Part shown: positions 1,608 to 25,403 of the stretch, piece after piece | Position numbering within the stretch: position 1 is the first letter of the stretch | How the letters are laid out: the number at the start of each line of letters is the position of its first letter | Assembly (NCBI GenBank): GCA_022572685.1 | Contig: JACZVL010000002.1 | Span: 1 to 60,099 of the forward strand | DNA: 60,099 bases | Reading direction: 5' to 3' | Source of the DNA: Pseudomonadota bacterium | Lineage (GTDB): Bacteria; Pseudomonadota; Alphaproteobacteria; Kiloniellales; J153 | Notes under the pieces: generated by a model | The model's database searches: none | The model's input: only the letters and a program-made list of their open reading frames with translations | What the model was told of the DNA's origin: nothing | Program-made: the position numbers and the translations under genes

Positions 1608-2036
1608 CGCCGGTCAAGGAACGAGACCTCTTCCAGACCCGCGCCGGCCCAGGGGCCGGGCGCGGCGGCGACCTATTTTTGATCGCTCGAACGGATCGAC
1701 AGCCGCGCCAATCAGGCGGCGGTGTTGCACGACTATATCGTATATTTAACAGTTGGTTCTGATAAAATACTGATCTAAAAAATCACCTAAATTGCCGCGT
1801 CTTGCCGGGACCGGCGACGGGCCCGGCGGGGCGCCGCCGTTGGCTTCCCGGATCGAAACCCTGTCGACTCGCGCTCCTTGGTATCGGTCCCGGACCGGAA
1901 TTAATGTCCGACTATCGGCATGAGGCCGGCGCGTGGGCCGGCGCCGGGTCTTGAGCGGACGCCCAAGCTCGTGAATAGTGCGCGCTTGCGCCCGGCCCCC
2001 GCGATTCGCGCGGCCATCCGCGGCGCCGTTGGGAGC

Positions 2037-4583
2037 ATGGCGGCCATGAGCGAGTCCCCGGCAATGCGGTCCGAAGCCGGCCGGCCCAGCCCGGCGGCCG
2101 AGCGGCTCGCCTGCCTGCGCGAGCTGGAGCGCAAGGTGCTGTGGCTGTCGACCTGGACCATCCACAACGCCAACCACCTGCGCCCCAATCGCGACGGGCT
2201 CAAGGTCGGCGGCCACCAGGCCTCCAGCGCCTCCCTGGCGACGCTGATGACGGCGCTCTATTTCGACGTGCTGCGGCCCCAGGACCGGGTCGCGGTCAAG
2301 CCCCATGCGAGCCCGGTGTTCCACGCCATCCAATACCTCCTGGGCCAACAGAGCCGGGACCGGCTGGAGCGCTTCCGCGCCTATGGCGGCGCCCAGTCCT
2401 ATCCCTCGCGCACCAAGGACGTGGACGACGTCGATTTCTCGACCGGCTCGGTCGGCCTCGGGGTCGCCATGACCACCTTCGCCAGCCTCGCCCAGGACTA
2501 TCTGCGGCTCAAGGGCTGGGCGCCGGAGGACCTGCCCGAGGGCCGCATGGTGGCGCTGGTGGGCGATGCCGAGCTCGACGAGGGCAACGTCTACGAGGCC
2601 CTGTTCGAGGGCTGGAAGCACGATCTGCGCAACGTCTGGTGGGTCATCGACTACAACCGGCAGAGCCTGGACGCGGTGGTGCCGGACCGGCTGTTCGGGC
2701 GCTTCGACCAGATGTTCACCAACTTCGGCTGGCGGGTCGTGACCATCAAGTACGGCAAGCGCCTGGAGGCGGCCTTCGCGCGCCCGGGCGGGGCGGCGCT
2801 CCGGCGCTGGATCGACGACTGCCCGAACTCGCTCTATTCGGCGCTGGTGTTCCAGGGCGGCGCGGCCTGGCGCCGGCAGTTGGAGGCCGATCTCGGCGCC
2901 GAGCCCGGGGCCGAGCCCGGGGCCGAACCCGGGGCCGAACCCGGGGCCGAATCCGGGATCGCCGCGATCCTCGCCGACCACGACGATCCGGCCCTGGCCG
3001 CGCTGATGACCAACCTGGGCGGCCACGACATGGAGAGCGTGCTGGAGGCCTTCCACGCCGTCGAGGACGACCAGCCGACCTGCTTCATCGCCTACACCAT
3101 CAAGGGCCTGGGGCTGCCCTTCGCCGGCCACAAGGACAATCACGCCGGGCTCATGAACCCGGACCAGATGGCGGAGTTCCAGCGCCACAACCGGATTCCG
3201 GAGGGCGCGGAATGGGACCCCTTCGCCGGGCTCGGCCTGCCCGAGGCGACGCTGCGGAACTTCCTCGACGCCGTCCCCTTCGCCGCCCGGGGTGCCCGGC
3301 GCTACCACGCCGCGCCGATCGCGGTGCCGGCGGACTTCCCCAGGCCGACAGCTCCCAAGTCCAACGGCGGAGTCATGTCGACCCAGGACGGTTTCGGTCG
3401 GATCATGGCCGATCTGGCGCGCGACGGCGGCGCGCTGGCCGAGCGCATCGTCACCACCTCGCCCGACGTGACCGTCTCGACCAACCTGGGCGGCTGGGTC
3501 AACCGGCGCGGCATCTTCGACCGCCACCCGCGCGCCGACGTGTTCAAGGAGCAGAAGGTGGTCTCGGCCCAGCGCTGGGGCATGTCGCCCGAGGGCCAGC
3601 ACATCGAGCTGGGCATCGCCGAGAACAACCTGTTCATCCTGCTCGGCGCGCTCGGCCTGTGCCACAGCCTGTTCGGCGCCCGCCTGCTGCCGGTCGGCAC
3701 GCTCTACGACCCCTTCGTCCAGCGCGGCCTGGATGCGCTGAACTACGCCTGCTACCAGGACGCCCGCTTCATGGTGGTGGCGACCCCCTCGGGGATCACG
3801 CTGGGGCCGGAAGGCGGCGCCCACCAGTCGATCTCGACGCCGCTCATCGGCATCGCCCAGGACGGCCTGGCCAGCTTCGAGCCGGCCTTCGTGGACGAGC
3901 TCTCGGCGATCATGGCCTGGGCCTTCGACTACATGCAGCGCGGCGGGCAAGGGGCTGACCAGGGGGCTGGCCAGGGGGCTGACCAGGGGGCGGCGGGCGG
4001 CGCCGGGACCGCCTGGCTGCGCGATGCCGCCGGCGGCGCGGTCTACCTGCGGCTCTCGACCCGGCCCCTGGCCCAGCCGCCGCGCGCGCTCTCGGCCGCC
4101 CTCGCCGAGGAGGTGATCGCGGGGGGCTATTGGCTACGGCCGCCGGCGCCCGGCGCGGAGCTGGCCATCGTCTACAGCGGCGCGATCGCCGCCGAGGCCC
4201 TGGCCGCGCACCAGGAGATTCTGGACGACCTGCCCGGCGCCGGCCTGCTGGCGGTGACCTCGGCCGATCGGCTCAACGCCGGCTGGCACGCCGCCGAACA
4301 GGCGCGCCGGGGCGGCGGGGGGGCGGCAAGCCGGGATACCTTGGCCGCGGTCGAGCGCCTGCTCGGCCCGCTCGCGCCCGATGCGGCCCTGGTCACGGTG
4401 ATCGACGGCCATCCGGCCACGCTGTCGTGGCTCGGCGCGGTACGCGGCCATACGGTTCAGGCGCTCGGTGTCGAGCATTTCGGGCAGTCGGGCGATCTGG
4501 CGGATCTCTACCGCCACCACCATATAGATACGGAGGCGATCCTGGACGCCTGCGCCGCGGCCTGCCTGTCCCGACTCCGCTAG
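2037..4583 (+). CDS. AceE-family (homodimeric type) thiamine-diphosphate-dependent 2-oxoacid dehydrogenase E1 / transketolase-like protein
   Basis: 887-aa ORF (1920..4583). It contains LKVGGHQASSASLATLMTALYF, GDAELDEGNVYEAL and a C-terminal transketolase-like region. The start is uncertain: in-frame ATGs occur at 1920, 2037 and 2046, and GGGAG sits 10 nt before 2046. Confidence 0.8.
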   Translation: MAAMSESPAMRSEAGRPSPAAERLACLRELERKVLWLSTWTIHNANHLRPNRDGLKVGGHQASSASLATLMTALYFDVLRPQDRVAVKPHASPVFHAIQYLLGQQSRDRLERFRAYGGAQSYPSRTKDVDDVDFSTGSVGLGVAMTTFASLAQDYLRLKGWAPEDLPEGRMVALVGDAELDEGNVYEALFEGWKHDLRNVWWVIDYNRQSLDAVVPDRLFGRFDQMFTNFGWRVVTIKYGKRLEAAFARPGGAALRRWIDDCPNSLYSALVFQGGAAWRRQLEADLGAEPGAEPGAEPGAEPGAESGIAAILADHDDPALAALMTNLGGHDMESVLEAFHAVEDDQPTCFIAYTIKGLGLPFAGHKDNHAGLMNPDQMAEFQRHNRIPEGAEWDPFAGLGLPEATLRNFLDAVPFAARGARRYHAAPIAVPADFPRPTAPKSNGGVMSTQDGFGRIMADLARDGGALAERIVTTSPDVTVSTNLGGWVNRRGIFDRHPRADVFKEQKVVSAQRWGMSPEGQHIELGIAENNLFILLGALGLCHSLFGARLLPVGTLYDPFVQRGLDALNYACYQDARFMVVATPSGITLGPEGGAHQSISTPLIGIAQDGLASFEPAFVDELSAIMAWAFDYMQRGGQGADQGAGQGADQGAAGGAGTAWLRDAAGGAVYLRLSTRPLAQPPRALSAALAEEVIAGGYWLRPPAPGAELAIVYSGAIAAEALAAHQEILDDLPGAGLLAVTSADRLNAGWHAAEQARRGGGGAASRDTLAAVERLLGPLAPDAALVTVIDGHPATLSWLGAVRGHTVQALGVEHFGQSGDLADLYRHHHIDTEAILDACAAACLSRLR
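2898..2957. repeat. 5 x 12-bp in-frame tandem repeat (GCCGARCCCGGG) encoding (AEPG)n inside the E1 gene
   Basis: Read directly: gccgagcccggg x2, gccgaacccggg x2, gccgaatccggg. Confidence 0.95.
3947..3994. repeat. 4 x 12-bp in-frame tandem repeat (CARGGGGCTGRC) encoding GQGADQGAGQGADQGAAG inside the E1 gene
   Basis: Read directly: caaggggctgac cagggggctggc cagggggctgac cagggggcggcg. Confidence 0.9.
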
Positions 4584-4713
4584 TGCGGCCGCCGATACCG
4601 GCTCGGGCAGGACGATTCGGGCGGATATCTGCGGGCTTGCGCGCTTCGGCGCTATGTTATAAACGGGCAACCGCCAGCGGCGTGGGCCTGGGGCAGGGGC
4701 GTGGGCCTGGGGC

Positions 4714-4798
4714 GCGGGCGTGGCGGAATTGGCAGACGCGCTGGCTTTAGGTGCCAGTGGAGCAATCCATGGGGGTTCGAGTCCCTCCGCCCGCACCA
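4714..4798 (+). tRNA. tRNA-Leu (anticodon TAG), type II with long variable arm, CCA encoded
   Basis: Acceptor gcgggcg/cgcccgc. Anticodon arm ctggc-ttTAGgt-gccag. Long variable arm. T arm ggggg-ttcgagt-ccctc. Ends in ACCA. Confidence 0.93.
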
Positions 4799-4902
4799 CG
4801 CGCCGATCCGTTAAGCGCCCGAGCGGGTCTCGCGCGGCGGCCCGGGTGACGATCGAGGGACAGGATGCGACCCCGACTCAGGACAGAAAGGCCGATCCGC
4901 CG

Positions 4903-6357
4903 ATGCAGGTGACCGAGACCAACGCCGAAGGCTTGAAGCGGGCCTTCAAGGTCCAGCTCGAAGCGCGCGAAATCGACGAGAAGTTGACCGGCCGCCTGGT
5001 GGAGCTCGGCAACAACGTCAAGGTGCCCGGCTTCCGGCCCGGCAAGGTGCCGATCCAAATTCTCAAGCAGCGCTTCGGAAAATCGGTCATGGGCGAGGTC
5101 CTGGAGCGCGCGGTCACCGACAGCTCGAACCAGGCGCTCAGCGAGCGCGGCCTGCGCCCGGCCATGCAGCCCAAGATCGAGATCACCTCCTTCGACGAGG
5201 GCAAGGACCTGGAATACACCATCGAGCTGGAGCTGCTGCCCGACGTCGTGCCGATGGACTTTTCGCAGATCGAACTCGAGCGCACGGTGGTCGAGGTCGC
5301 CGAGGCGGCGGTCGAGGAGACCATCGCGGACCTGGCCAAGTCGCACAAGAAGACCAAGCCGCTGGAGGCGCCGCGGGAGGCCCGGCGCGGCGACGTCCTG
5401 GTGATCGATTTCGCCGGCACGGTCGACGGCGAGGCCTATCCCGGCATGTCCGGCGAGGACCACCATCTGGAACTCGGCTCGAGCAACTTCATCGCCGGCT
5501 TCGAGGACCAGTTGATCGGCGTCGGGATCGGCGACACGCGGGAGGTCAAGGTGACCTTTCCCAAGGAATACGTCAACGAGCGCCTGGCCGGCCAGGACGC
5601 GGTATTCAAGGTCACCATCAAGGACATGCTCGAATCGGTCCCCATGGCGATCGACGACGAGCTCGCCACGACGCTGGGCGAAGCCGACCTGGCGGCGCTC
5701 AAGGCGCGCGTGCGCGAGCGGATCTCGGCCGAGTACAAGGAATTCGGCCGCTCCCGCCTGAAGCGGCAGTTGCTCGACCGCCTGGCCGAGGGCCACGATT
5801 TTCCGGTCCCCGAAAGTATGGTCGACGTCGAGTTCGACGCGATCTGGAAACAGATCGAGCAGGACAAAGAGGCCGGCAAGCTCGACCCGGAGGACGCCGA
5901 GAAGGACGAGGACGATCTCAAGAGCGACTACCGGGACATCGCGGTACGCCGGGTTCGCCTGGGCCTGCTGATCTCCGAGGTCGGCCGCATCAACGCCATT
6001 GAAGTCACCGAGGAAGAGGCCAACATGGCACTCTACCGCGAGGCGCAGCAGTATTCGGGCAAGGAGCGCCAGGTTTTCGAACACTATCAGAAGTCGCCCG
6101 AGGCCATGGCCAACCTGCGCGCGCCGCTGTTCGAGAACAAGGTGGTCGATTTCATTATCGACCTGGCCAAGGTGACCGAGCGCAGCCTGACCGCGGAACA
6201 GCTGCGCGAGGAGATTGAGGCGGAGGCTGCCGACGGGGCCGAGCCGAAGAAGAAGCCGGCCGAGAAAAAGGCGGCCGGGAAAAAGGCGGAGAAGTCCGAC
6301 CAAGAAGCAGAACCGAAGAAGAAACCGGCCGAGAAAGCTGCCAAAAAGAGCTCCTGA
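4903..6357 (+). CDS. tig: Trigger factor (peptidyl-prolyl isomerase) with Lys/Glu/Ala-rich C-terminal tail
   Basis: MQVTETNAEGLKRAFKV start. Has an FKBP-type middle domain and the conserved tig-clpP-clpX-lon context. The upstream part of the 4720 ORF overlaps tRNA-Leu and was rejected. Confidence 0.93.
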   Translation: MQVTETNAEGLKRAFKVQLEAREIDEKLTGRLVELGNNVKVPGFRPGKVPIQILKQRFGKSVMGEVLERAVTDSSNQALSERGLRPAMQPKIEITSFDEGKDLEYTIELELLPDVVPMDFSQIELERTVVEVAEAAVEETIADLAKSHKKTKPLEAPREARRGDVLVIDFAGTVDGEAYPGMSGEDHHLELGSSNFIAGFEDQLIGVGIGDTREVKVTFPKEYVNERLAGQDAVFKVTIKDMLESVPMAIDDELATTLGEADLAALKARVRERISAEYKEFGRSRLKRQLLDRLAEGHDFPVPESMVDVEFDAIWKQIEQDKEAGKLDPEDAEKDEDDLKSDYRDIAVRRVRLGLLISEVGRINAIEVTEEEANMALYREAQQYSGKERQVFEHYQKSPEAMANLRAPLFENKVVDFIIDLAKVTERSLTAEQLREEIEAEAADGAEPKKKPAEKKAAGKKAEKSDQEAEPKKKPAEKAAKKSS

Positions 6358-6414
6358 GTGGGATCATGCTTTGTTGGCGGCTCCGGAACAGGCTCTAGGG
6401 AAAAGACCAAACCG

Positions 6415-7083
6415 ATGACCGATGCACGCGACACCTACATGAACACCCTGATTCCGATGGTGGTCGAGCAGACCAGTCGGGGCGAGCGCGCCTACGATAT
6501 CTATTCGCGCCTGCTGAAGGAGCGGATCGTCTTTCTGACCGGCCCGATCCACGACATGGTGGCCAGCGTGATCTGCGCGCAGTTGCTCTATCTGGAATCG
6601 GAGCATCCGAACAAGGACATTTCCTTTTACATCAACTCGCCCGGCGGGGTGGTGACGTCGGGCCTGGCGATCTACGACACCATGCAGTACATCCGGCCGG
6701 ATATCTCCACGGTCTGCATCGGCCAGGCCGCCTCGGCGGGTTCGCTGCTGCTGATGGCCGGCGCCAAGGACAAGCGCTACGCCCTGCCGAACGCGAAAAT
6801 CATGGTGCACCAGCCCTCCGGCGGCTACGAGGGCCAGGCGACCGATATCGAGATCCACGCCCGCGAGATCCTCAGTACCCGGGCCCGGCTCAACCAGATC
6901 TACGTCGACCACACCGGTCAGGATTTGAAGGTGATCGAGGAGGCCATGGAGCGGGACAAGTTCATGCAGCCCGAGGAGGCCAAGGCCTTCGGCCTGATCG
7001 ACCATGTGGTGGTCAAGCGCCCGCCCTCGCTCGGCGATCCGGACCAGGAAAAATCGGAAGGCGACGGTAAGGGTAAGGACTAG
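6415..7083 (+). CDS. clpP: ATP-dependent Clp protease proteolytic subunit
   Basis: Contains [30 protein letters not shown] and [11 protein letters not shown] (active-site Ser), plus MVHQPSGG. Confidence 0.96.
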
Positions 7084-21325: not shown

Positions 21326-21934
21326 GTGATCATTCAGGCGCTCGCCTTCTATCTCTTCGCCGCCATCACGGTGGCTTCGGGCGTCATGGTGATCTCGGCG
21401 CGCAACCCGGTGCATTCGGTGCTGTTCCTGATCCTCGCGTTCTTCAACGCGGCCGGGCTGTTCGTGCTGATGGGCGCGGAGTTCCTGGCCATGATCCTGA
21501 TCGTGGTCTACGTCGGCGCGGTGGCGGTGCTGTTCCTCTTCGTGGTCATGATGCTCGACATCAATTTCACCGAGCTGCGCCAGGGCTTCCTGCAGTACCT
21601 GCCGATCGGCGCGCTGGTCGGGATCATCCTGCTGGTCGAGTTGATTGCGGTGGTGGGCGCCTGGGTGGTGGCGCCGGAGGCGGGCCTGGCCACCAGCCTG
21701 CCGATCCCGCCGCCCGATCAGGTCACCAATACCCAGGCCTTGGGCGAGGTGCTCTACACCAAGTACATCTACCTGTTCCAGACGGCGGGACTGGTGCTGC
21801 TGGTCGCCATGATCGGCGCCATCGTGCTGACCCTGCGCCAGCGCGAGGGCGTGCGCCGCCAGAACATCGGCGAGCAGGTCTCGCGCGAGGCCACCGTCGA
21901 GGTCAAGAACGTCCCCAGCGGAAGCGGAATCTGA
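21326..21934 (+). CDS. nuoJ: NADH-quinone oxidoreductase subunit J
   Basis: GTG start. 202 aa membrane protein with NPVHSVLFLILAFFNAAGLF and VYVGAVAVLFLFVVMM. Confidence 0.94.
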   Translation: MIIQALAFYLFAAITVASGVMVISARNPVHSVLFLILAFFNAAGLFVLMGAEFLAMILIVVYVGAVAVLFLFVVMMLDINFTELRQGFLQYLPIGALVGIILLVELIAVVGAWVVAPEAGLATSLPIPPPDQVTNTQALGEVLYTKYIYLFQTAGLVLLVAMIGAIVLTLRQREGVRRQNIGEQVSREATVEVKNVPSGSGI

Positions 21935-21937
21935 GCC

Positions 21938-22249
21938 ATGTTCGAGATCGGCCTTTCCCATTACCTGACGGTCGCCGCGATCCTGTTCACGCTTGGAATC
22001 TTCGGCATCTTCCTGAACCGCAAGAACGTGATCATCATCCTGATGTCGATCGAGCTCATGCTGCTCGCGGTCAACATCAACCTGGTCGCCTTCTCGACCC
22101 ACCTGAACGATCTGGTGGGCCAGGTCTTCGCCCTGTTCGTGCTCACCGTGGCGGCGGCGGAGGCGGCGATCGGCCTGGCCATCCTGGTGGCCTACTTCCG
22201 CAACCGCGGCTCGATCGCGGTCGAGGACATCAACCTGATGAAGGGCTGA
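21938..22249 (+). CDS. nuoK: NADH-quinone oxidoreductase subunit K
   Basis: 103 aa. Contains [18 protein letters not shown] and [20 protein letters not shown]. Confidence 0.96.
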
Positions 22250-22254
22250 GCCGG
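22204..22254. repeat. Left copy of the 51-bp perfect direct repeat (last 14 nuoK codons, the stop, and the spacer)
   Basis: ccgcggctcgatcgcggtcgaggacatcaacctgatgaagggctgagccgg is identical to 23419-23469. After one mismatch (22255 t versus 23470 a), the identity continues through catgc. Confidence 0.97.
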
Positions 22255-22256
22255 TC

Positions 22257-22919
22257 ATGCCGACCACGATAGAAGCCCTTCTGCTCGTAATACTTTTTGT
22301 TGGGCCGGGATTCTTGTGCGCGCGCTTCGTGCGGGCGGAAATCCCTAGTAGCCTTACCGGAGAAAAAAATTCGATCATTCTTTCAATGATATTTAGCACA
22401 CTGATTCATACAATATTATTGCCGTACACAATATTTATTCTACCAAATATTCAGGAATTTATTGCATCTCTTAATCAACCTAATAACAGAAATAACTTGT
22501 CCATTGATTGGTTGGTTTTTTGTTGGATTGTTATTGTCTTGTTTGTTGCGCCGTTGGTTACTGCACTTGCTTTGTCGTGGTTATGGCGTTTCGAGCCGAT
22601 GCAACCGTTTCTCTCGAAGCTAGGCATGTCCGTAACGCAAACGATTCCTACGGCTTGGGATTGGGTTTTCCTTTCCCAAACAGACGGCTGCTGGATCGTT
22701 GCAGAGATGGAGGATGGATCGGTAGTGGGTGGAGAGTATGGTGCGGGTTCATTCGCTTCGCTATCTCCACACCGCAGTGATTTATTCTTGGAAAAAGAGT
22801 ACGAGCTAGATGAGAATCACAACTTTCTTGACGTGCTTCCGGACACTGTTGGTGTCTGGATAAACGTAGAAAAGGTGAAACACATCCATCTTTATCGGGT
22901 ATTGGAAGACGAAGGATGA
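22257..22919 (+). CDS. Hypothetical integral membrane protein (220 aa): 3 predicted N-terminal TM helices plus a ~100-aa acidic C-terminal domain; architecture reminiscent of DUF6338-type proteins (unverified)
   Basis: Only long ORF in the AT-rich insert. Hydrophobic stretches at about residues 5-23, 38-62 and 83-110. The ATG occupies the position homologous to the nuoL ATG in the duplicated junction, so it inherits that initiation region. Confidence 0.7.
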   Translation: MPTTIEALLLVILFVGPGFLCARFVRAEIPSSLTGEKNSIILSMIFSTLIHTILLPYTIFILPNIQEFIASLNQPNNRNNLSIDWLVFCWIVIVLFVAPLVTALALSWLWRFEPMQPFLSKLGMSVTQTIPTAWDWVFLSQTDGCWIVAEMEDGSVVGGEYGAGSFASLSPHRSDLFLEKEYELDENHNFLDVLPDTVGVWINVEKVKHIHLYRVLEDEG

Positions 22920-22922
22920 GTC

Positions 22923-23102
22923 ATGAGTAAGAAAGAACAAGCAAGCACACGCCGCACCCCGAGGGAAATAAATGTTGGTCGGGTGACTCAAGTTGGCAAA
23001 GGTGCACAGCCACTTTCAGGCGCTGGACCAAAGCCAAGCAGGAAGCCTGGAACTGGTACGGTTGTAAGCTCAGGTTCGGGTGTTGAAAAAAAAGAAAAAT
23101 AG
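22923..23102 (+). CDS. Small basic Lys/Pro/Gly-rich protein (59 aa), below the ORF-track cutoff
   Basis: My translation: MSKKEQASTRRTPREINVGRVTQVGKGAQPLSGAGPKPSRKPGTGTVVSSGSGVEKKEK. GAAGGA lies 8 nt upstream of the ATG, and the ATG is 3 nt after the upstream stop (coupled arrangement). Confidence 0.45.
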   Translation: MSKKEQASTRRTPREINVGRVTQVGKGAQPLSGAGPKPSRKPGTGTVVSSGSGVEKKEK

Positions 23103-23173
23103 CCTTTTAAGAAGATTTCAGACGTAGAGCCTAGTCGAGACAATTTTCGCGATCGGGATGCGAGGACGGAAAA

Positions 23174-23341
23174 GTGGAAACGAAAAACCGAAGTGGCCGA
23201 TTGGTTGAGGGTGCAAAACCATCGAAAAGTCCGGGAACGAAACCAGCCGAAAAAATTAAGCCACTAACATTTCGTGGGGGTGTTCAACCAAAAGCCCCTG
23301 CTGGCCCAAAACCGGCTGTCAAGCCAGGACCGAAGAAGTAA
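23174..23341 (+). CDS. Possible second small basic Lys/Pro/Gly-rich protein (55 aa, GTG start)
   Basis: My translation: (M)ETKNRSGRLVEGAKPSKSPGTKPAEKIKPLTFRGGVQPKAPAGPKPAVKPGPKK. GAGGA lies 7 nt upstream of the GTG. It shares the AGPKPxxKPG motif with the 22923 ORF. Confidence 0.3.
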   Translation: METKNRSGRLVEGAKPSKSPGTKPAEKIKPLTFRGGVQPKAPAGPKPAVKPGPKK

Positions 23342-23350
23342 GTGTTCGAA

Positions 23351-23464
23351 ATGACCGACGTCTGCCTGTTGCTGCAAGGCGCCACGACCACCGGGTGGCC
23401 AAACCGCTCGACGAATCTCCGCGGCTCGATCGCGGTCGAGGACATCAACCTGATGAAGGGCTGA
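23351..23464 (+). other. Chimeric 37-codon mini-ORF ending in the duplicated NuoK C-terminus ([14 protein letters not shown]-stop)
   Basis: The ATG at 23351 is in frame with the duplicated nuoK tail and its TGA at 23462-23464. The N-terminal 23 residues have no NuoK similarity. Confidence 0.3.
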
Positions 23465-23469
23465 GCCGG
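23419..23469. repeat. Right copy of the 51-bp perfect direct repeat (nuoK tail fragment plus the native nuoL upstream region)
   Basis: Identical to 22204-22254 and immediately precedes the nuoL ATG at 23472. Confidence 0.97.
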
Positions 23470-23471
23470 AC

Positions 23472-25403
23472 ATGCTGGAAACCGCCGTCGTCATTCTGCC
23501 GCTGATCGGCGCCGCCATCGCCGGGCTGTTCGGCCGCGCGATCGGCGGCCGTGGCGCCCAGGTGGTGACCTGCGCCCTGCTTGGCGTGTCGGCGCTGTTC
23601 GCGATGGTGGTGTTCAAGCAGGTCGCGATCGATGGCCAGACCCGGGTCACCGAGCTGTTCACCTGGATCGATTCGGGCGCCTTCGAATTCTCCTGGGCGA
23701 TCAAGCTGGACACTCTCAGCGCGGTCATGCTGCTGGTGGTCACCGTGGTGTCCTGGCTGATCCACATCTATTCGATCGGCTACATGTCCCACGACAAGTC
23801 GGTGCCGCGCTTCTTCTCCTACCTCAGCCTGTTCACGTTTTTCATGCTGGTGCTGGTGACCGCGGACAACTTCGTGCAGCTGTTCTTCGGCTGGGAGGGG
23901 GTCGGCCTCGCCTCCTACCTGCTGATCGGCTTCTGGTACCACAAGCCGAGCGCCAACGCCGCCGCGATCAAGGCGTTCCTGGTCAACCGGGTGGGCGACA
24001 TCGGCTTCGCGCTCGGCGTCTTCGGCACCTTCGCGCTGTTCGGCGCGGTCGGTTTCGAGCAGGTGTTCGCCGCCGTGCCGGGCCAGGCCGAGGCGACCTT
24101 CACCTTCCTCGGCATCGAGGGCCACGCGCTTACCATCATCTGCATCCTGCTGTTCATCGGCGCGATGGGCAAATCGGCGCAGATCGTGCTGCACACCTGG
24201 CTGCCCGACGCCATGGAGGGCCCGACCCCGGTGTCGGCGCTGATCCACGCCGCGACCATGGTGACCGCGGGGGTGTTCCTGCTGGTGCGGCTCTCGCCGA
24301 TGTTCGAATACGCGCCCGTGGCGCTCGAGCTGGTCACCTACGTCGGCGCCGCCACCGCCTTCTTCGCCGCCACCGTGGGCCTGGTGCAGAACGACATCAA
24401 GCGGGTGATCGCCTATTCGACCATCTCGCAGCTCGGCTACATGTTCTTCGCCATCGGGGTCTCGGCCTACGGCGCGGCGATCTTCCATCTGATGACCCAC
24501 GCCTTCTTCAAGGCGCTGCTGTTCCTGGGCGCGGGCTCGGTGATCCACGCCATGTCCGACGAGCAGGACATGCGCAAGATGGGCGGCATCTGGCGCAGGG
24601 TGCCGCTCACCTACGGGGTCATGTGGATCGGTTCCCTGGCGCTGGCGGGGGTGCCGCCGTTCGCCGGCTTCTTCTCCAAGGACATGATCCTGGAGGCCGC
24701 CTACGCGGCCCAATCCAGCCACGGCGCCTTGGCCTTCTGGCTCGGCATCGCCGCCGCCTTCATGACCGCGTTCTATTCCTGGCGCCTGTTGTTCATGGTC
24801 TTCCACGGGCGCCCGCGCGCGACGCCCGAGGTCATGAGCCGGGTCCACGAATCGCCCAAGGTCATGACCCTGCCTCTGATCGGGCTGGCCATCGGCGCGG
24901 TGTTCGCCGGCTACCTCGGCTTCGAGGCCTTCGTCGGCGAGGGCCGGGTCGAGTTCTGGGGCGCCGCGATCCTGGTGCTCGAGGGCAACGACGCCATCGA
25001 GGCGGCGCACCAGGTGCCGCTCTGGGTCAAGCTGCTGCCGCTCGGCATGGGCGCGGGCGGCATCGCGCTGGCCTGGATCATGTACGTGCGAATGCCCGCC
25101 ATCCCGGCCCTGCTGGCCACGCGCTTGCGGCCGCTCTACCTGTTCCTGCTGAATAAGTGGTACTTCGACGAGCTCTACGACTGGGCCTTCGTGCGGCCCG
25201 CCCACTACCTGGGGCGCGGCCTGTGGAAGTCGGGCGACGGTGCGGTCATCGACGGGGTCGGACCCGACGGCGTGGCGGCGGTGGCGCTGGTGCTCGCGCG
25301 CCGGGCCAGCCGCCTGCAGACCGGCTACCTCTACCACTACGCCTTCGCCATGATGATCGGGGTCGCCGGCCTGATCACCTGGTACATCGTGAGCCATCTG
25401 TAG
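23472..25403 (+). CDS. nuoL: NADH-quinone oxidoreductase subunit L
   Basis: 643 aa antiporter-like subunit with FFGWEGVGLASYLLIGFW and WLPDAMEGPTPVSALIHAATMVTAGV. Confidence 0.97.
   Translation: MLETAVVILPLIGAAIAGLFGRAIGGRGAQVVTCALLGVSALFAMVVFKQVAIDGQTRVTELFTWIDSGAFEFSWAIKLDTLSAVMLLVVTVVSWLIHIYSIGYMSHDKSVPRFFSYLSLFTFFMLVLVTADNFVQLFFGWEGVGLASYLLIGFWYHKPSANAAAIKAFLVNRVGDIGFALGVFGTFALFGAVGFEQVFAAVPGQAEATFTFLGIEGHALTIICILLFIGAMGKSAQIVLHTWLPDAMEGPTPVSALIHAATMVTAGVFLLVRLSPMFEYAPVALELVTYVGAATAFFAATVGLVQNDIKRVIAYSTISQLGYMFFAIGVSAYGAAIFHLMTHAFFKALLFLGAGSVIHAMSDEQDMRKMGGIWRRVPLTYGVMWIGSLALAGVPPFAGFFSKDMILEAAYAAQSSHGALAFWLGIAAAFMTAFYSWRLLFMVFHGRPRATPEVMSRVHESPKVMTLPLIGLAIGAVFAGYLGFEAFVGEGRVEFWGAAILVLEGNDAIEAAHQVPLWVKLLPLGMGAGGIALAWIMYVRMPAIPALLATRLRPLYLFLLNKWYFDELYDWAFVRPAHYLGRGLWKSGDGAVIDGVGPDGVAAVALVLARRASRLQTGYLYHYAFAMMIGVAGLITWYIVSHL

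Follow-up and report, generated by a model that had tools for sequence, protein, structure and literature searches.

How a small, compositionally foreign group of genes came to lie inside the respiratory complex I (nuo) operon of an alphaproteobacterium, and what its products may do, is the question raised by the locus described here. The window, which is the whole stretch of DNA analyzed, comprises 60,099 nucleotides (nt) of contig JACZVL010000002.1 from a Pseudomonadota bacterium of the Kiloniellales. The element in question is a 1.2-kb cassette of three genes, located exactly between nuoK and nuoL, in which a gene of the DUF6338 family (22257..22919, + strand) is followed by two genes for micro-proteins, smA (59 amino acids, aa) and smB (55 aa). 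The answer that we tentatively favor is that the cassette may constitute a two-component accessory membrane module, of a defense or addiction type, residing in the nuo operon and exchanged via its conserved flanks; the function of the DUF6338 module is one that we infer.

The open reading frame (ORF) at 22257..22919 was found as the initial annotation had described it, with an ATG start, a length of 220 aa, and all three of the quoted peptide stretches present in the translation. The suggested resemblance to DUF6338 was borne out in Pfam, where the protein matched PF19865 with an E-value of 3.5e-31 (108.8 bits versus a cut-off of 26.5) over its full length, residues 1–215 aligning with positions 1–202 of the 205-position profile. 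The three transmembrane (TM) helices placed at residues 5–23, 38–62, and 83–110 agreed with the hydrophobic segments at residues 1–27, 39–63, and 79–112 (Kyte-Doolittle, ≥1.6), and the C-terminal domain was acidic as described, with 18 D/E versus 5 K/R and a net charge of −13 over residues 125–220. No enzymatic family was matched by the protein in Pfam, NCBIfam, PADLOC, or PHROGs, in agreement with the reported absence of a recognizable enzymatic motif. The best match in PADLOC-DB v2 was a 2TM “Effector” model with a non-significant E-value of 0.14, smA and smB had zero matches in that database, and nothing significant was obtained for the three cassette proteins in PADLOC, PHROGs, and NCBIfam. 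All of the residues invariant in the 12-sequence and 51-sequence DUF6338 alignments, namely P17-G18 (in TM1), P99, W134-D135, G159, S165, S168, D175, E179, and G199, are kept in the window protein. A word-indexed search yielded 11 homologues, an exhaustive hidden Markov model (HMM) search yielded a family of 2913 clusters at 50% identity, and the ratio of nonsynonymous to synonymous substitution rates (dN/dS) of the gene was 0.13–0.23 over dS values of 0.17–0.73. The homologue counts and the dN/dS values indicate that this is not a chance ORF; it is a functional gene, under purifying selection, for a DUF6338-family inner-membrane protein. Neither a match to a housekeeping family nor a loss of homologues with a Ka/Ks near 1 or frameshifts, which the initial annotation had set against its own proposal, was found.

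The cassette is flanked upstream by nuoK (21938..22249, + strand; complex I subunit K, 103 aa; PF00420, E-value of 9.6e-32) and downstream by nuoL (23472..25403, + strand; complex I subunit L, 643 aa; PF00361, E-value of 1.8e-85, and PF00662, E-value of 1.7e-22). The G+C content drops from 0.65–0.72 to 0.43–0.50 between approximately 22250 and 23400, and the G+C content at third codon positions (GC3) is 0.46 in the cassette versus 0.94 in nuoK and 0.96 in nuoL. smA (22923..23102, + strand) encodes a basic (+9) partner rich in lysine, proline, and glycine (K/P/G-rich) with the motif VGKGAQPLSGAGPKP, and its ATG lies 3 nt past the DUF6338 stop codon in the same frame; smB (23174..23341, + strand), which has a GTG start, encodes a second basic (+11) K/P/G-rich partner ending in GGVQPKAPAGPKPAVKPGPKK. 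A 57-nt direct repeat with one mismatch (56/57 identical) brackets the cassette. Copy 1 (22204..22260, + strand) is made up of the final 46 nt of nuoK, a 7-nt spacer, and ATGC, and copy 2 (23419..23475, + strand), found by a repeat search, consists of a pseudo-nuoK 3′ end (46 nt), the spacer, and the true nuoL start, retaining the native ribosome-binding region of nuoL. The ATGC closing copy 1 supplies the start codon of the DUF6338 gene and, because the repeat copies hold the nuoK end, the spacer, and ATGC, this gene starts on a duplicate of the nuoL initiation region. The reality of the cassette, as first annotated, is thus supported by the G+C trough together with the bounding repeat, and its foreign look by the difference in GC3.

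Between smB and repeat copy 2 lies a GC-rich filler of 77 nt (23342..23418, + strand), of which the first 57 nt represent a decayed nuoL 5′ end and the last 20 nt are unassigned. Compared without gaps and in register from the start codon, these 57 nt were identical to the nuoL of the window (23472–23528) at 36 positions, versus a mean of 15.6 and a maximum of 28 in 5000 shuffles and 21 in the best other register; this fixed-register comparison was significant, and a local alignment of the filler with nuoL was not. A distant donor of the filler was rejected, as the filler is closest to the window-type nuoL (36/57) versus that of other lineages (19–22/57). The locus reads nuoK, spacer, DUF6338-smA-smB, pseudo-nuoL 5′ end, pseudo-nuoK 3′ end, spacer, and nuoL. 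Such a scar would be expected if a fragment or circle bearing the cassette together with short stretches of nuoK and nuoL were inserted at an empty junction, and the arrangement suggests that integration may have proceeded by a single homologous crossover or by illegitimate recombination aided by homology. The three cassette ORFs matched no integrase or transposase family, and scans of 21800–23700 revealed neither an Rfam family nor any promoter or terminator signal in the cassette that exceeded chance. An integron cassette was rejected, since a search of 21800–23800 found no attC-like inverted-repeat pair at the cassette end; the only inverted-repeat pair nearby (23378–23393 and 23543–23558) spans repeat copy 2 and nuoL.

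Nine of the 11 word-search homologues were located on contigs, and three GTDB loci were added. All located relatives with at least 40% identity lie between nuoK and nuoL and are followed by two small K/P/G-rich ORFs, their identities being 98% (L003), 93% (L091 and L092), 85% (L093), 82% (L094), 77% (L007), 57% (L008), 50% (L095 and L096), 48% (L011, partial), 47% (L004–L006), 46–47% (L001 = L009), and 40% (L010). Relatives at 24–35% identity were never found near nuo genes, and nuo-located loci account for only three of the 83 relatives found among 185,579 GTDB species representatives. The GC3 of the cassette versus that of the flanking nuo genes was 0.46 versus 0.94–0.96 in L003, 0.36 versus 0.85 in L010, approximately 0.63 versus 0.95 in L004 and L008, and 0.61 versus 0.80–0.85 in L001. 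Within the DUF6338 family, the loci at nuo form a single small branch of foreign composition. An assembly artefact was rejected, as the same junctions occur in independent assemblies (L001, L003, L004, L005, L007, L010, and L095).

Members of the subclade of 85–98% identity (L003, L091, and L093) have the filler and repeat copy 2 in common, and more distant lineages have neat junctions with neither repeat nor filler. The pseudo-nuoL filler is more decayed in L091, L093, and the tail of L007 than in the window; in L007, the start of the filler is visible before the contig ends, and the contig of L094 stops before the filler point. The second repeat copy of L093 carries a 10-nt deletion in its 5′ part, its 3′ 34 nt with the nuoL ribosome-binding region being intact. 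The smB of the same contig (950–1153) is shortened by an internal deletion joining ..EGTKPSNSSG to PKPAVKPGAKK. The 3′ end of nuoK is conserved at the nucleotide level across hosts, and all three cassette ORFs are intact in every relative examined. smA is conserved in L001, L003, L004, L007, L008, L011, L091, L093, and L094, with a dN/dS of 0.13–0.21 at dS values of 0.8–2.0, and smB in L001, L003, L004, L007, L008, L091, and L095, with a dN/dS of 0.26–0.28 at a dS of approximately 0.9.

A degenerate search for the empty form of the site identified two JGI contigs (L089 and L090) with the unbroken arrangement nuoK-GCCGGAC-nuoL. Both contigs are collinear with the window, at 89–91% nucleotide identity over 8–9 kb on each side, and carry exactly one copy of the 57-nt repeat sequence. 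Many metagenomes from marine sediment contain the window sequence, and in Logan data the depth of the cassette unitig versus its exact-match flanks was 14.2 versus 50–58 (X1), 5.9 versus 12–23 (X4), and approximately 5 versus 13–19 (X5); k=31 contigs cannot span the repeat, which has a 49-nt exact core, and such depths are not proof of a same-strain empty allele. Breaks in the cassette unitig fall within each of the two repeat copies, and the ENA contig L003 begins 4 nt before copy 1 and stops within 2 nt of the copy 2 end. The depth drop and the extent of L003 fit a mixture of filled and empty alleles and do not prove it. Two cassette alleles were observed in the X24 library (marine sediment; window 22506–22638), at depths of 14 and 47 and with 6 and 2 differences from the window, respectively. 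The “metatranscriptomic WGA” libraries X22–X24, which may include DNA, hold cassette fragments, a weak indication of transcription.

Conserved flanks, filled (window, L003, and L091) versus empty (L089 and L090) forms, and the lack of a mobility gene make the cassette, as far as its sequence goes, a candidate of the minimal-mobile-element type. In Neisseria, minimal mobile elements are cassettes between conserved genes that are exchanged by transformation and homologous recombination, a concept cited in PMC3082526 and PMC1538595. Like these elements, the cassette is small and foreign in composition, has filled and empty forms between conserved flanks, and contains neither an integrase nor a transposase. 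Unlike them, it occupies a site inside an essential, co-transcribed operon, the same type of cassette, not a set of alternatives, occurs across distant hosts, and the direct repeat and the flank remnants mark a single-crossover or illegitimate join.

The co-occurrence with small K/P/G-rich partners raised in the initial annotation proved to be family-wide. The neighbors of 80 GTDB family loci were examined; the 51-sequence diverse alignment was too variable for a locus search, and the loci were found with another alignment. The sole constant neighbor was a same-strand ORF of 45–82 aa that abuts or overlaps the DUF6338 stop codon, with a start resembling MSKxxKP, one to three (K/R)G(Y/H)QP motifs, and an end resembling KPPSNPPNQGSGGKK. 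An HMM of this partner matched 46 of the 7705 small ORFs in the loci, 43 of them directly downstream of DUF6338 on the same strand and three elsewhere. An HMM-detectable partner was present in 43 of the 80 loci, further partners were seen by eye, and the partner often occurs in two to three paralogous copies. The partners of the nuo clade fall below the HMM threshold and have the G-x-Q-P motif and the KK end in common with the family. No family was found for nine partner micro-proteins in Pfam and NCBIfam. The C-terminal 95 aa of DUF6338 are negatively charged in 75 of the 80 loci (median −8), and the partners are positively charged in 45 of 46 cases (median +8). Across the family, the unit that is conserved is a DUF6338 gene with one to three genes after it for micro-proteins that are basic and rich in proline.

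In Pseudomonas stutzeri, three novel proline-rich small proteins encoded in an operon with a DUF6338 gene have been detected by digest-free mass spectrometry, with 44–114 peptide-spectrum matches (PMC10433244). They were seen full-length, and membrane fractions were not analyzed in that study. The authors regarded these proteins as specific to P. stutzeri and assigned no function to them; antimicrobial roles were raised, and DUF6338 was reported also in biosynthetic gene clusters (PMC10433244). In the operon of strain ATCC 14405 (Pstu14405_RS12030), as in the window, DUF6338 comes first and is followed by two to three basic, proline-rich proteins of 36–60 aa, and the ends are alike, P/G-rich and then KK or KKGG (...KPGPKK in the window; ...PPPPKK and ...PPPPPKKGG in P. 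stutzeri). Unlike the window cassette, the P. stutzeri copy is outside the nuo operon, in a region with DISARM-like genes. Our data show that the DUF6338-partner pairing is general, contrary to the species-unique view in PMC10433244. In the searchable literature, neither the partner rule for the whole family nor the nuoK-nuoL “address” has been described, PMC10433244 being the one paper mentioning DUF6338.

A fused form of the first partner was observed in L011 (CAZTNV010000463.1, 1–1500), where an smA-like head, ..RRVGGGLAPSSGAGPKPSTKAG.., comes after the nuo-type DUF6338 gene and runs on into leucine-rich repeats. The smA-type motif here heads a leucine-rich-repeat protein with at least five repeats (LAGLTGLQSLxLxxTPVxDLGP), and this fusion suggests that the motif may serve as a docking head attachable to a sensor-like domain. 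The same sequence contains a 100-N scaffold gap and a P-rich ORF ending in ..SPTPKK, followed by nuoL. It is binned as “Mycobacteriaceae”, yet its nuoL is of the alphaproteobacterial type, and the binning is probably wrong.

The structure of the DUF6338 protein was predicted with AlphaFold2 from the 12-sequence alignment, giving a model with a predicted local distance difference test score (pLDDT) of 73.5. The model contains helices at residues 3–28, 36–53/55–72, and 85–121, a short helix at 133–139 with the invariant W-D, and the strands of a β-barrel at 145–213, a domain with a local pLDDT of approximately 70–88. The model was compared with the PDB by Foldseek, a check proposed with the initial annotation; all of ranks 1–10 and most of the top 30 were Sm/LSm/Hfq/Gemin proteins, with E-values of only 0.05–0.7, probabilities up to 0.99, and target-normalized TM-scores of 0.4–0.6. 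An Sm-like fold of the C-terminal domain is plausible, not proven. Because of the three TM helices and the arginines after TM1, the acidic domain would most simply be placed in the cytoplasm; the partners have no signal peptide and so would sit in the cytoplasm too, on the same side as the acidic domain. Homology to bile-acid transporters was not accepted, the PDB profile search of the TM region versus NTCP/ASBT having given an E-value of approximately 0.4. In this weak, non-significant alignment (residues 3–94; 22257–22540), the invariant P-G of TM1 stands opposite the P-G-G of the transporters.

MscS channels combine TM helices with a cytoplasmic Sm-like β domain and form a heptameric ring. 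As an analogy only, DUF6338 is likewise predicted to have three N-terminal TM helices followed by an Sm-like β-barrel. Unlike MscS, it is much shorter and has no C-terminal α/β domain and no sequence match to the channel; no Pfam MS_channel match to the DUF6338 protein and no MscS chain in the PDB profile search was found.

The genomic neighbors of the family bear on the proposal, made from the sequence of the window, that the gene encodes a foreign defense effector. In five loci from different phyla (L012:4507-6760, L014:4622-6770, L020:782-2950, L041:4622-6790, and L044:4622-6810), a ThsB-like TIR protein of 133 aa (PF08937, E-value of 7.7e-15) and a caspase C14 protein of 318 aa form a block with DUF6338 and its partner. 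The block caspase is 73–87% identical between a Pseudomonadota metagenome-assembled genome (MAG), a Rhizobiaceae MAG, a Planctomycetaceae MAG, and Limimaricola, and the block adjoins integrases, a resolvase, type III restriction-modification genes, and an AAA_15 ATPase. From its gene content, the block looks like an uncatalogued candidate defense operon. A type IIG/DrmMI-like enzyme is located directly upstream of DUF6338 in five to six loci, and other neighbors of a mobile or defense type include relaxase/DUF3363, PIN, IS66, TraG, SbcD-like, type I restriction-modification, and resolvase genes. The GC3 of DUF6338 was below that of its neighbors in 58 of the 80 loci, with a median difference of −0.165. 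Taken together, these data mark the DUF6338 family as accessory cargo of a mobile kind, located frequently, though not invariably, in defense islands. The effector proposal stood in so far as part of the family occurs in defense or mobile contexts; it was weakened in that no PADLOC model matches the protein and many of the neighbors are housekeeping genes. Abortive-infection, toxin, and superinfection-exclusion functions are candidate roles of DUF6338 only.

Several individual loci were observed in these surroundings. In Candidatus Binatia (L019, L021, L024, L026, L036, L052, and L067; approximately 1800–6650), a same-strand protein of approximately 1130–1364 aa, encoded immediately upstream of DUF6338 and its partner, matches type IIG restriction-methyltransferase and DrmMI models, and in L019 it is split into 732 and 646 aa. 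In Hyphomonas and Henriciella (L079–L084, 3525–11250), a relaxase/DUF3363 protein (657 aa), a DUF6338-like protein, an SbcD-like phosphoesterase (411 aa), and a 1171-aa AAA protein form a block, so that another branch of DUF6338 appears to reside on a mobilizable element. The single full-length structural match in BFVD was A0A8S5PTE5 of Siphoviridae sp. ct96x5, an uncharacterized protein of 197 aa (E-value of 9.8e-06), which implies that at least one phage-derived contig carries a DUF6338-like protein.

TM effectors of type II Thoeris and the gasdermins encoded in bacterial operons with caspase-like proteases are examples of TIR- or protease-linked membrane effectors. Like these, DUF6338 and its partner are placed, in the five loci, after a ThsB-like TIR and a caspase, the position of the membrane-disrupting effector in such systems. 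Unlike them, the window cassette contains neither a TIR nor a protease gene, and no similarity to gasdermins or ThsA was observed in either sequence or fold. Type II toxin-antitoxin pairs include some with a toxin-first order, and the DUF6338 unit resembles these in its compactness, its overlapping stop and start, its labile-looking, disordered partner of opposite charge, its patchy, mobile distribution, and its lower G+C content. It differs from them in that the partner has no DNA-binding domain and the putative toxin is a 200-aa membrane protein.

Under the reading of the cassette as an accessory membrane module, its genes would be transcribed by read-through from the nuo promoter, which is the simplest route of expression because no promoter or terminator signal was found within the cassette, and DUF6338 and its partners would be made by coupled translation. 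The acidic Sm-like domain would be held in the cytoplasm by the three helices, and DUF6338 would probably oligomerize through these domains into a membrane ring, since Sm-like domains typically form rings. The basic, disordered partners could then bind the acidic ring as a regulator or a plug, so that the whole would act as a membrane-targeting accessory module in which a TM effector is held in check by a labile partner and which would have no structural or catalytic part in complex I. The cassette may have been gained by single-crossover or homology-facilitated recombination in the nuoK and nuoL flanks, with DNA from a cassette-bearing relative, and it could be lost precisely via recombination between the 57-nt repeats; gain through the flanks and loss through the repeats would explain the patchy, polymorphic distribution. 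A bolder version, in which a selfish cassette with no recombinase of its own homes to nuoK-nuoL, with the near-invariant nuoK 3′ and nuoL 5′ ends as its recombination arms, and encodes a widespread, uncatalogued two-component membrane system, a ring-forming DUF6338 with a cytoplasmic Sm-like domain gated by the micro-proteins as an abortive-infection or addiction pore, strikes us as rather unlikely in its entirety.

Several observations weigh against the proposed module and its mode of exchange. Many neighbors of DUF6338 are housekeeping genes, such as those for gyrase/topoisomerase IV, pyruvate kinase, glucokinase, GrpE, MutL, chaperonin, and triosephosphate isomerase, and the defense-island association is therefore partial; it was also determined without a background control. 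A scan of IMG/VR found no relatives. The Sm-like assignment depends on a medium-confidence model (pLDDT 73.5, from 12 sequences) and on Foldseek E-values of 0.05–0.7. The low depth of the cassette could partly come from flanks common to strains with divergent cassette alleles, and the AT-richness of the cassette persists despite a dS of 0.73 between copies. Finally, the identity matrices of host and cassette are roughly congruent, the order of DUF6338 identities paralleling that of NuoJ, NuoK, and NuoL.

The last point bears on a purely vertical history, in which the cassette would have entered once, in an old alphaproteobacterial ancestor, and then been lost repeatedly, with the repeat arising by local rearrangement and playing no part in transfer. 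The parallel in pairwise identities and the absence of repeat and filler from lineages outside the subclade of the window are in favor of such a history, and an old insertion with many losses appears, from the sequences compared, to be a live rival for the deep history of the cassette. As an account of the whole, however, we consider it unlikely, as in all lineages the GC3 of the cassette is 20–50 points below that of the host, few species representatives have the cassette and relatives at 89–91% nucleotide identity lack it, its depth is sub-stoichiometric in several metagenomes, and the pseudo-nuoL and pseudo-nuoK scar is of the kind left by a single-crossover import of a fragment with flanks.

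Distinctly unlikely, in our estimate, is a system of peptide export or immunity, in which the micro-proteins would be a bacteriocin-like or proline-rich antimicrobial payload and DUF6338 an exporter or immunity protein. The partners are always present, often as two to three paralogous copies, and are strongly basic and proline-rich, which would suit such a payload, as would the antimicrobial roles and biosynthetic gene clusters raised in PMC10433244. However, they contain no signal or leader peptide, no cysteine, and no modification motifs, no maturation enzyme is a constant neighbor, and the P. stutzeri partners were found full-length in a study in which membrane fractions were not analyzed (PMC10433244). 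The smA-type motif heading the leucine-rich-repeat protein of L011 also fits a regulator better than a secreted peptide.

The initial annotation had further suggested that the protein modulates or parasitizes respiratory-chain assembly. A related possibility is a lineage-specific accessory or assembly factor of complex I, acting at the membrane arm (NuoK/NuoL) and tuning assembly or proton pumping; such a role would account for the constant position of the cassette. The junction between two membrane-arm genes is strictly kept in at least 10 diverged lineages, the cassette is co-directional, tightly packed, and free of terminators, host and cassette divergences are roughly congruent, and the nqo/nuo operons of alphaproteobacteria, e.g., Paracoccus, are known to contain unidentified reading frames. 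Set against these points, the nuo clade is tiny within a family of approximately 2900 clusters that otherwise never adjoins nuo genes, it retains all of the family-invariant residues, close relatives have an intact junction with no cassette, only three of the GTDB relatives are nuo-located, and the codon composition is alien to the operon. We therefore regard such a factor as very unlikely. The empty junctions, the three nuo-located GTDB copies, and the GC3 of 0.46 are not those of a complex I subunit or a conserved nuo-operon gene, and a modulator or parasite in the biochemical sense is not supported, the family at large occurring away from nuo and the junction being empty in relatives at 89–91% identity; genetic hitch-hiking of a promoterless cassette in the operon does fit. 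A decaying, non-functional foreign ORF tolerated as junk in the spacer, for which one could invoke the AT-rich, foreign composition and the lack of a known function, is hardly credible in view of three ORFs that are intact in all relatives examined, a dN/dS of 0.13–0.28 at dS values up to approximately 2, and the retention of the family-invariant residues.

The DUF6338 family, with its approximately 2900 clusters in many phyla, thereby acquires a testable anatomy, consisting of an obligate micro-protein partner, basic and rich in proline, an acidic domain predicted to be Sm-like and cytoplasmic, and recurrent placement beside genes for TIR/caspase and restriction-modification proteins. Because most of the partners are small ORFs that have not been annotated, the system is missed by genome annotations and defense catalogues. 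The nuoK-nuoL clade represents a natural example of an accessory module inside an essential operon, with scars and with filled and empty alleles in the same habitat, and is useful for the study of how cassettes with no mobility genes spread via conserved flanks and of AT-richness in GC-rich hosts.

Beyond the cassette, the window (11000–32000) and L001 (1–20660), a Baikal alphaproteobacterial MAG, have a common gene order comprising HU, nuoA-N, birA, RNase J, glyoxalase, DUF1467, and tag. Within the profiled stretch of 15–32 kb of the window, the cassette is the single low-G+C segment.

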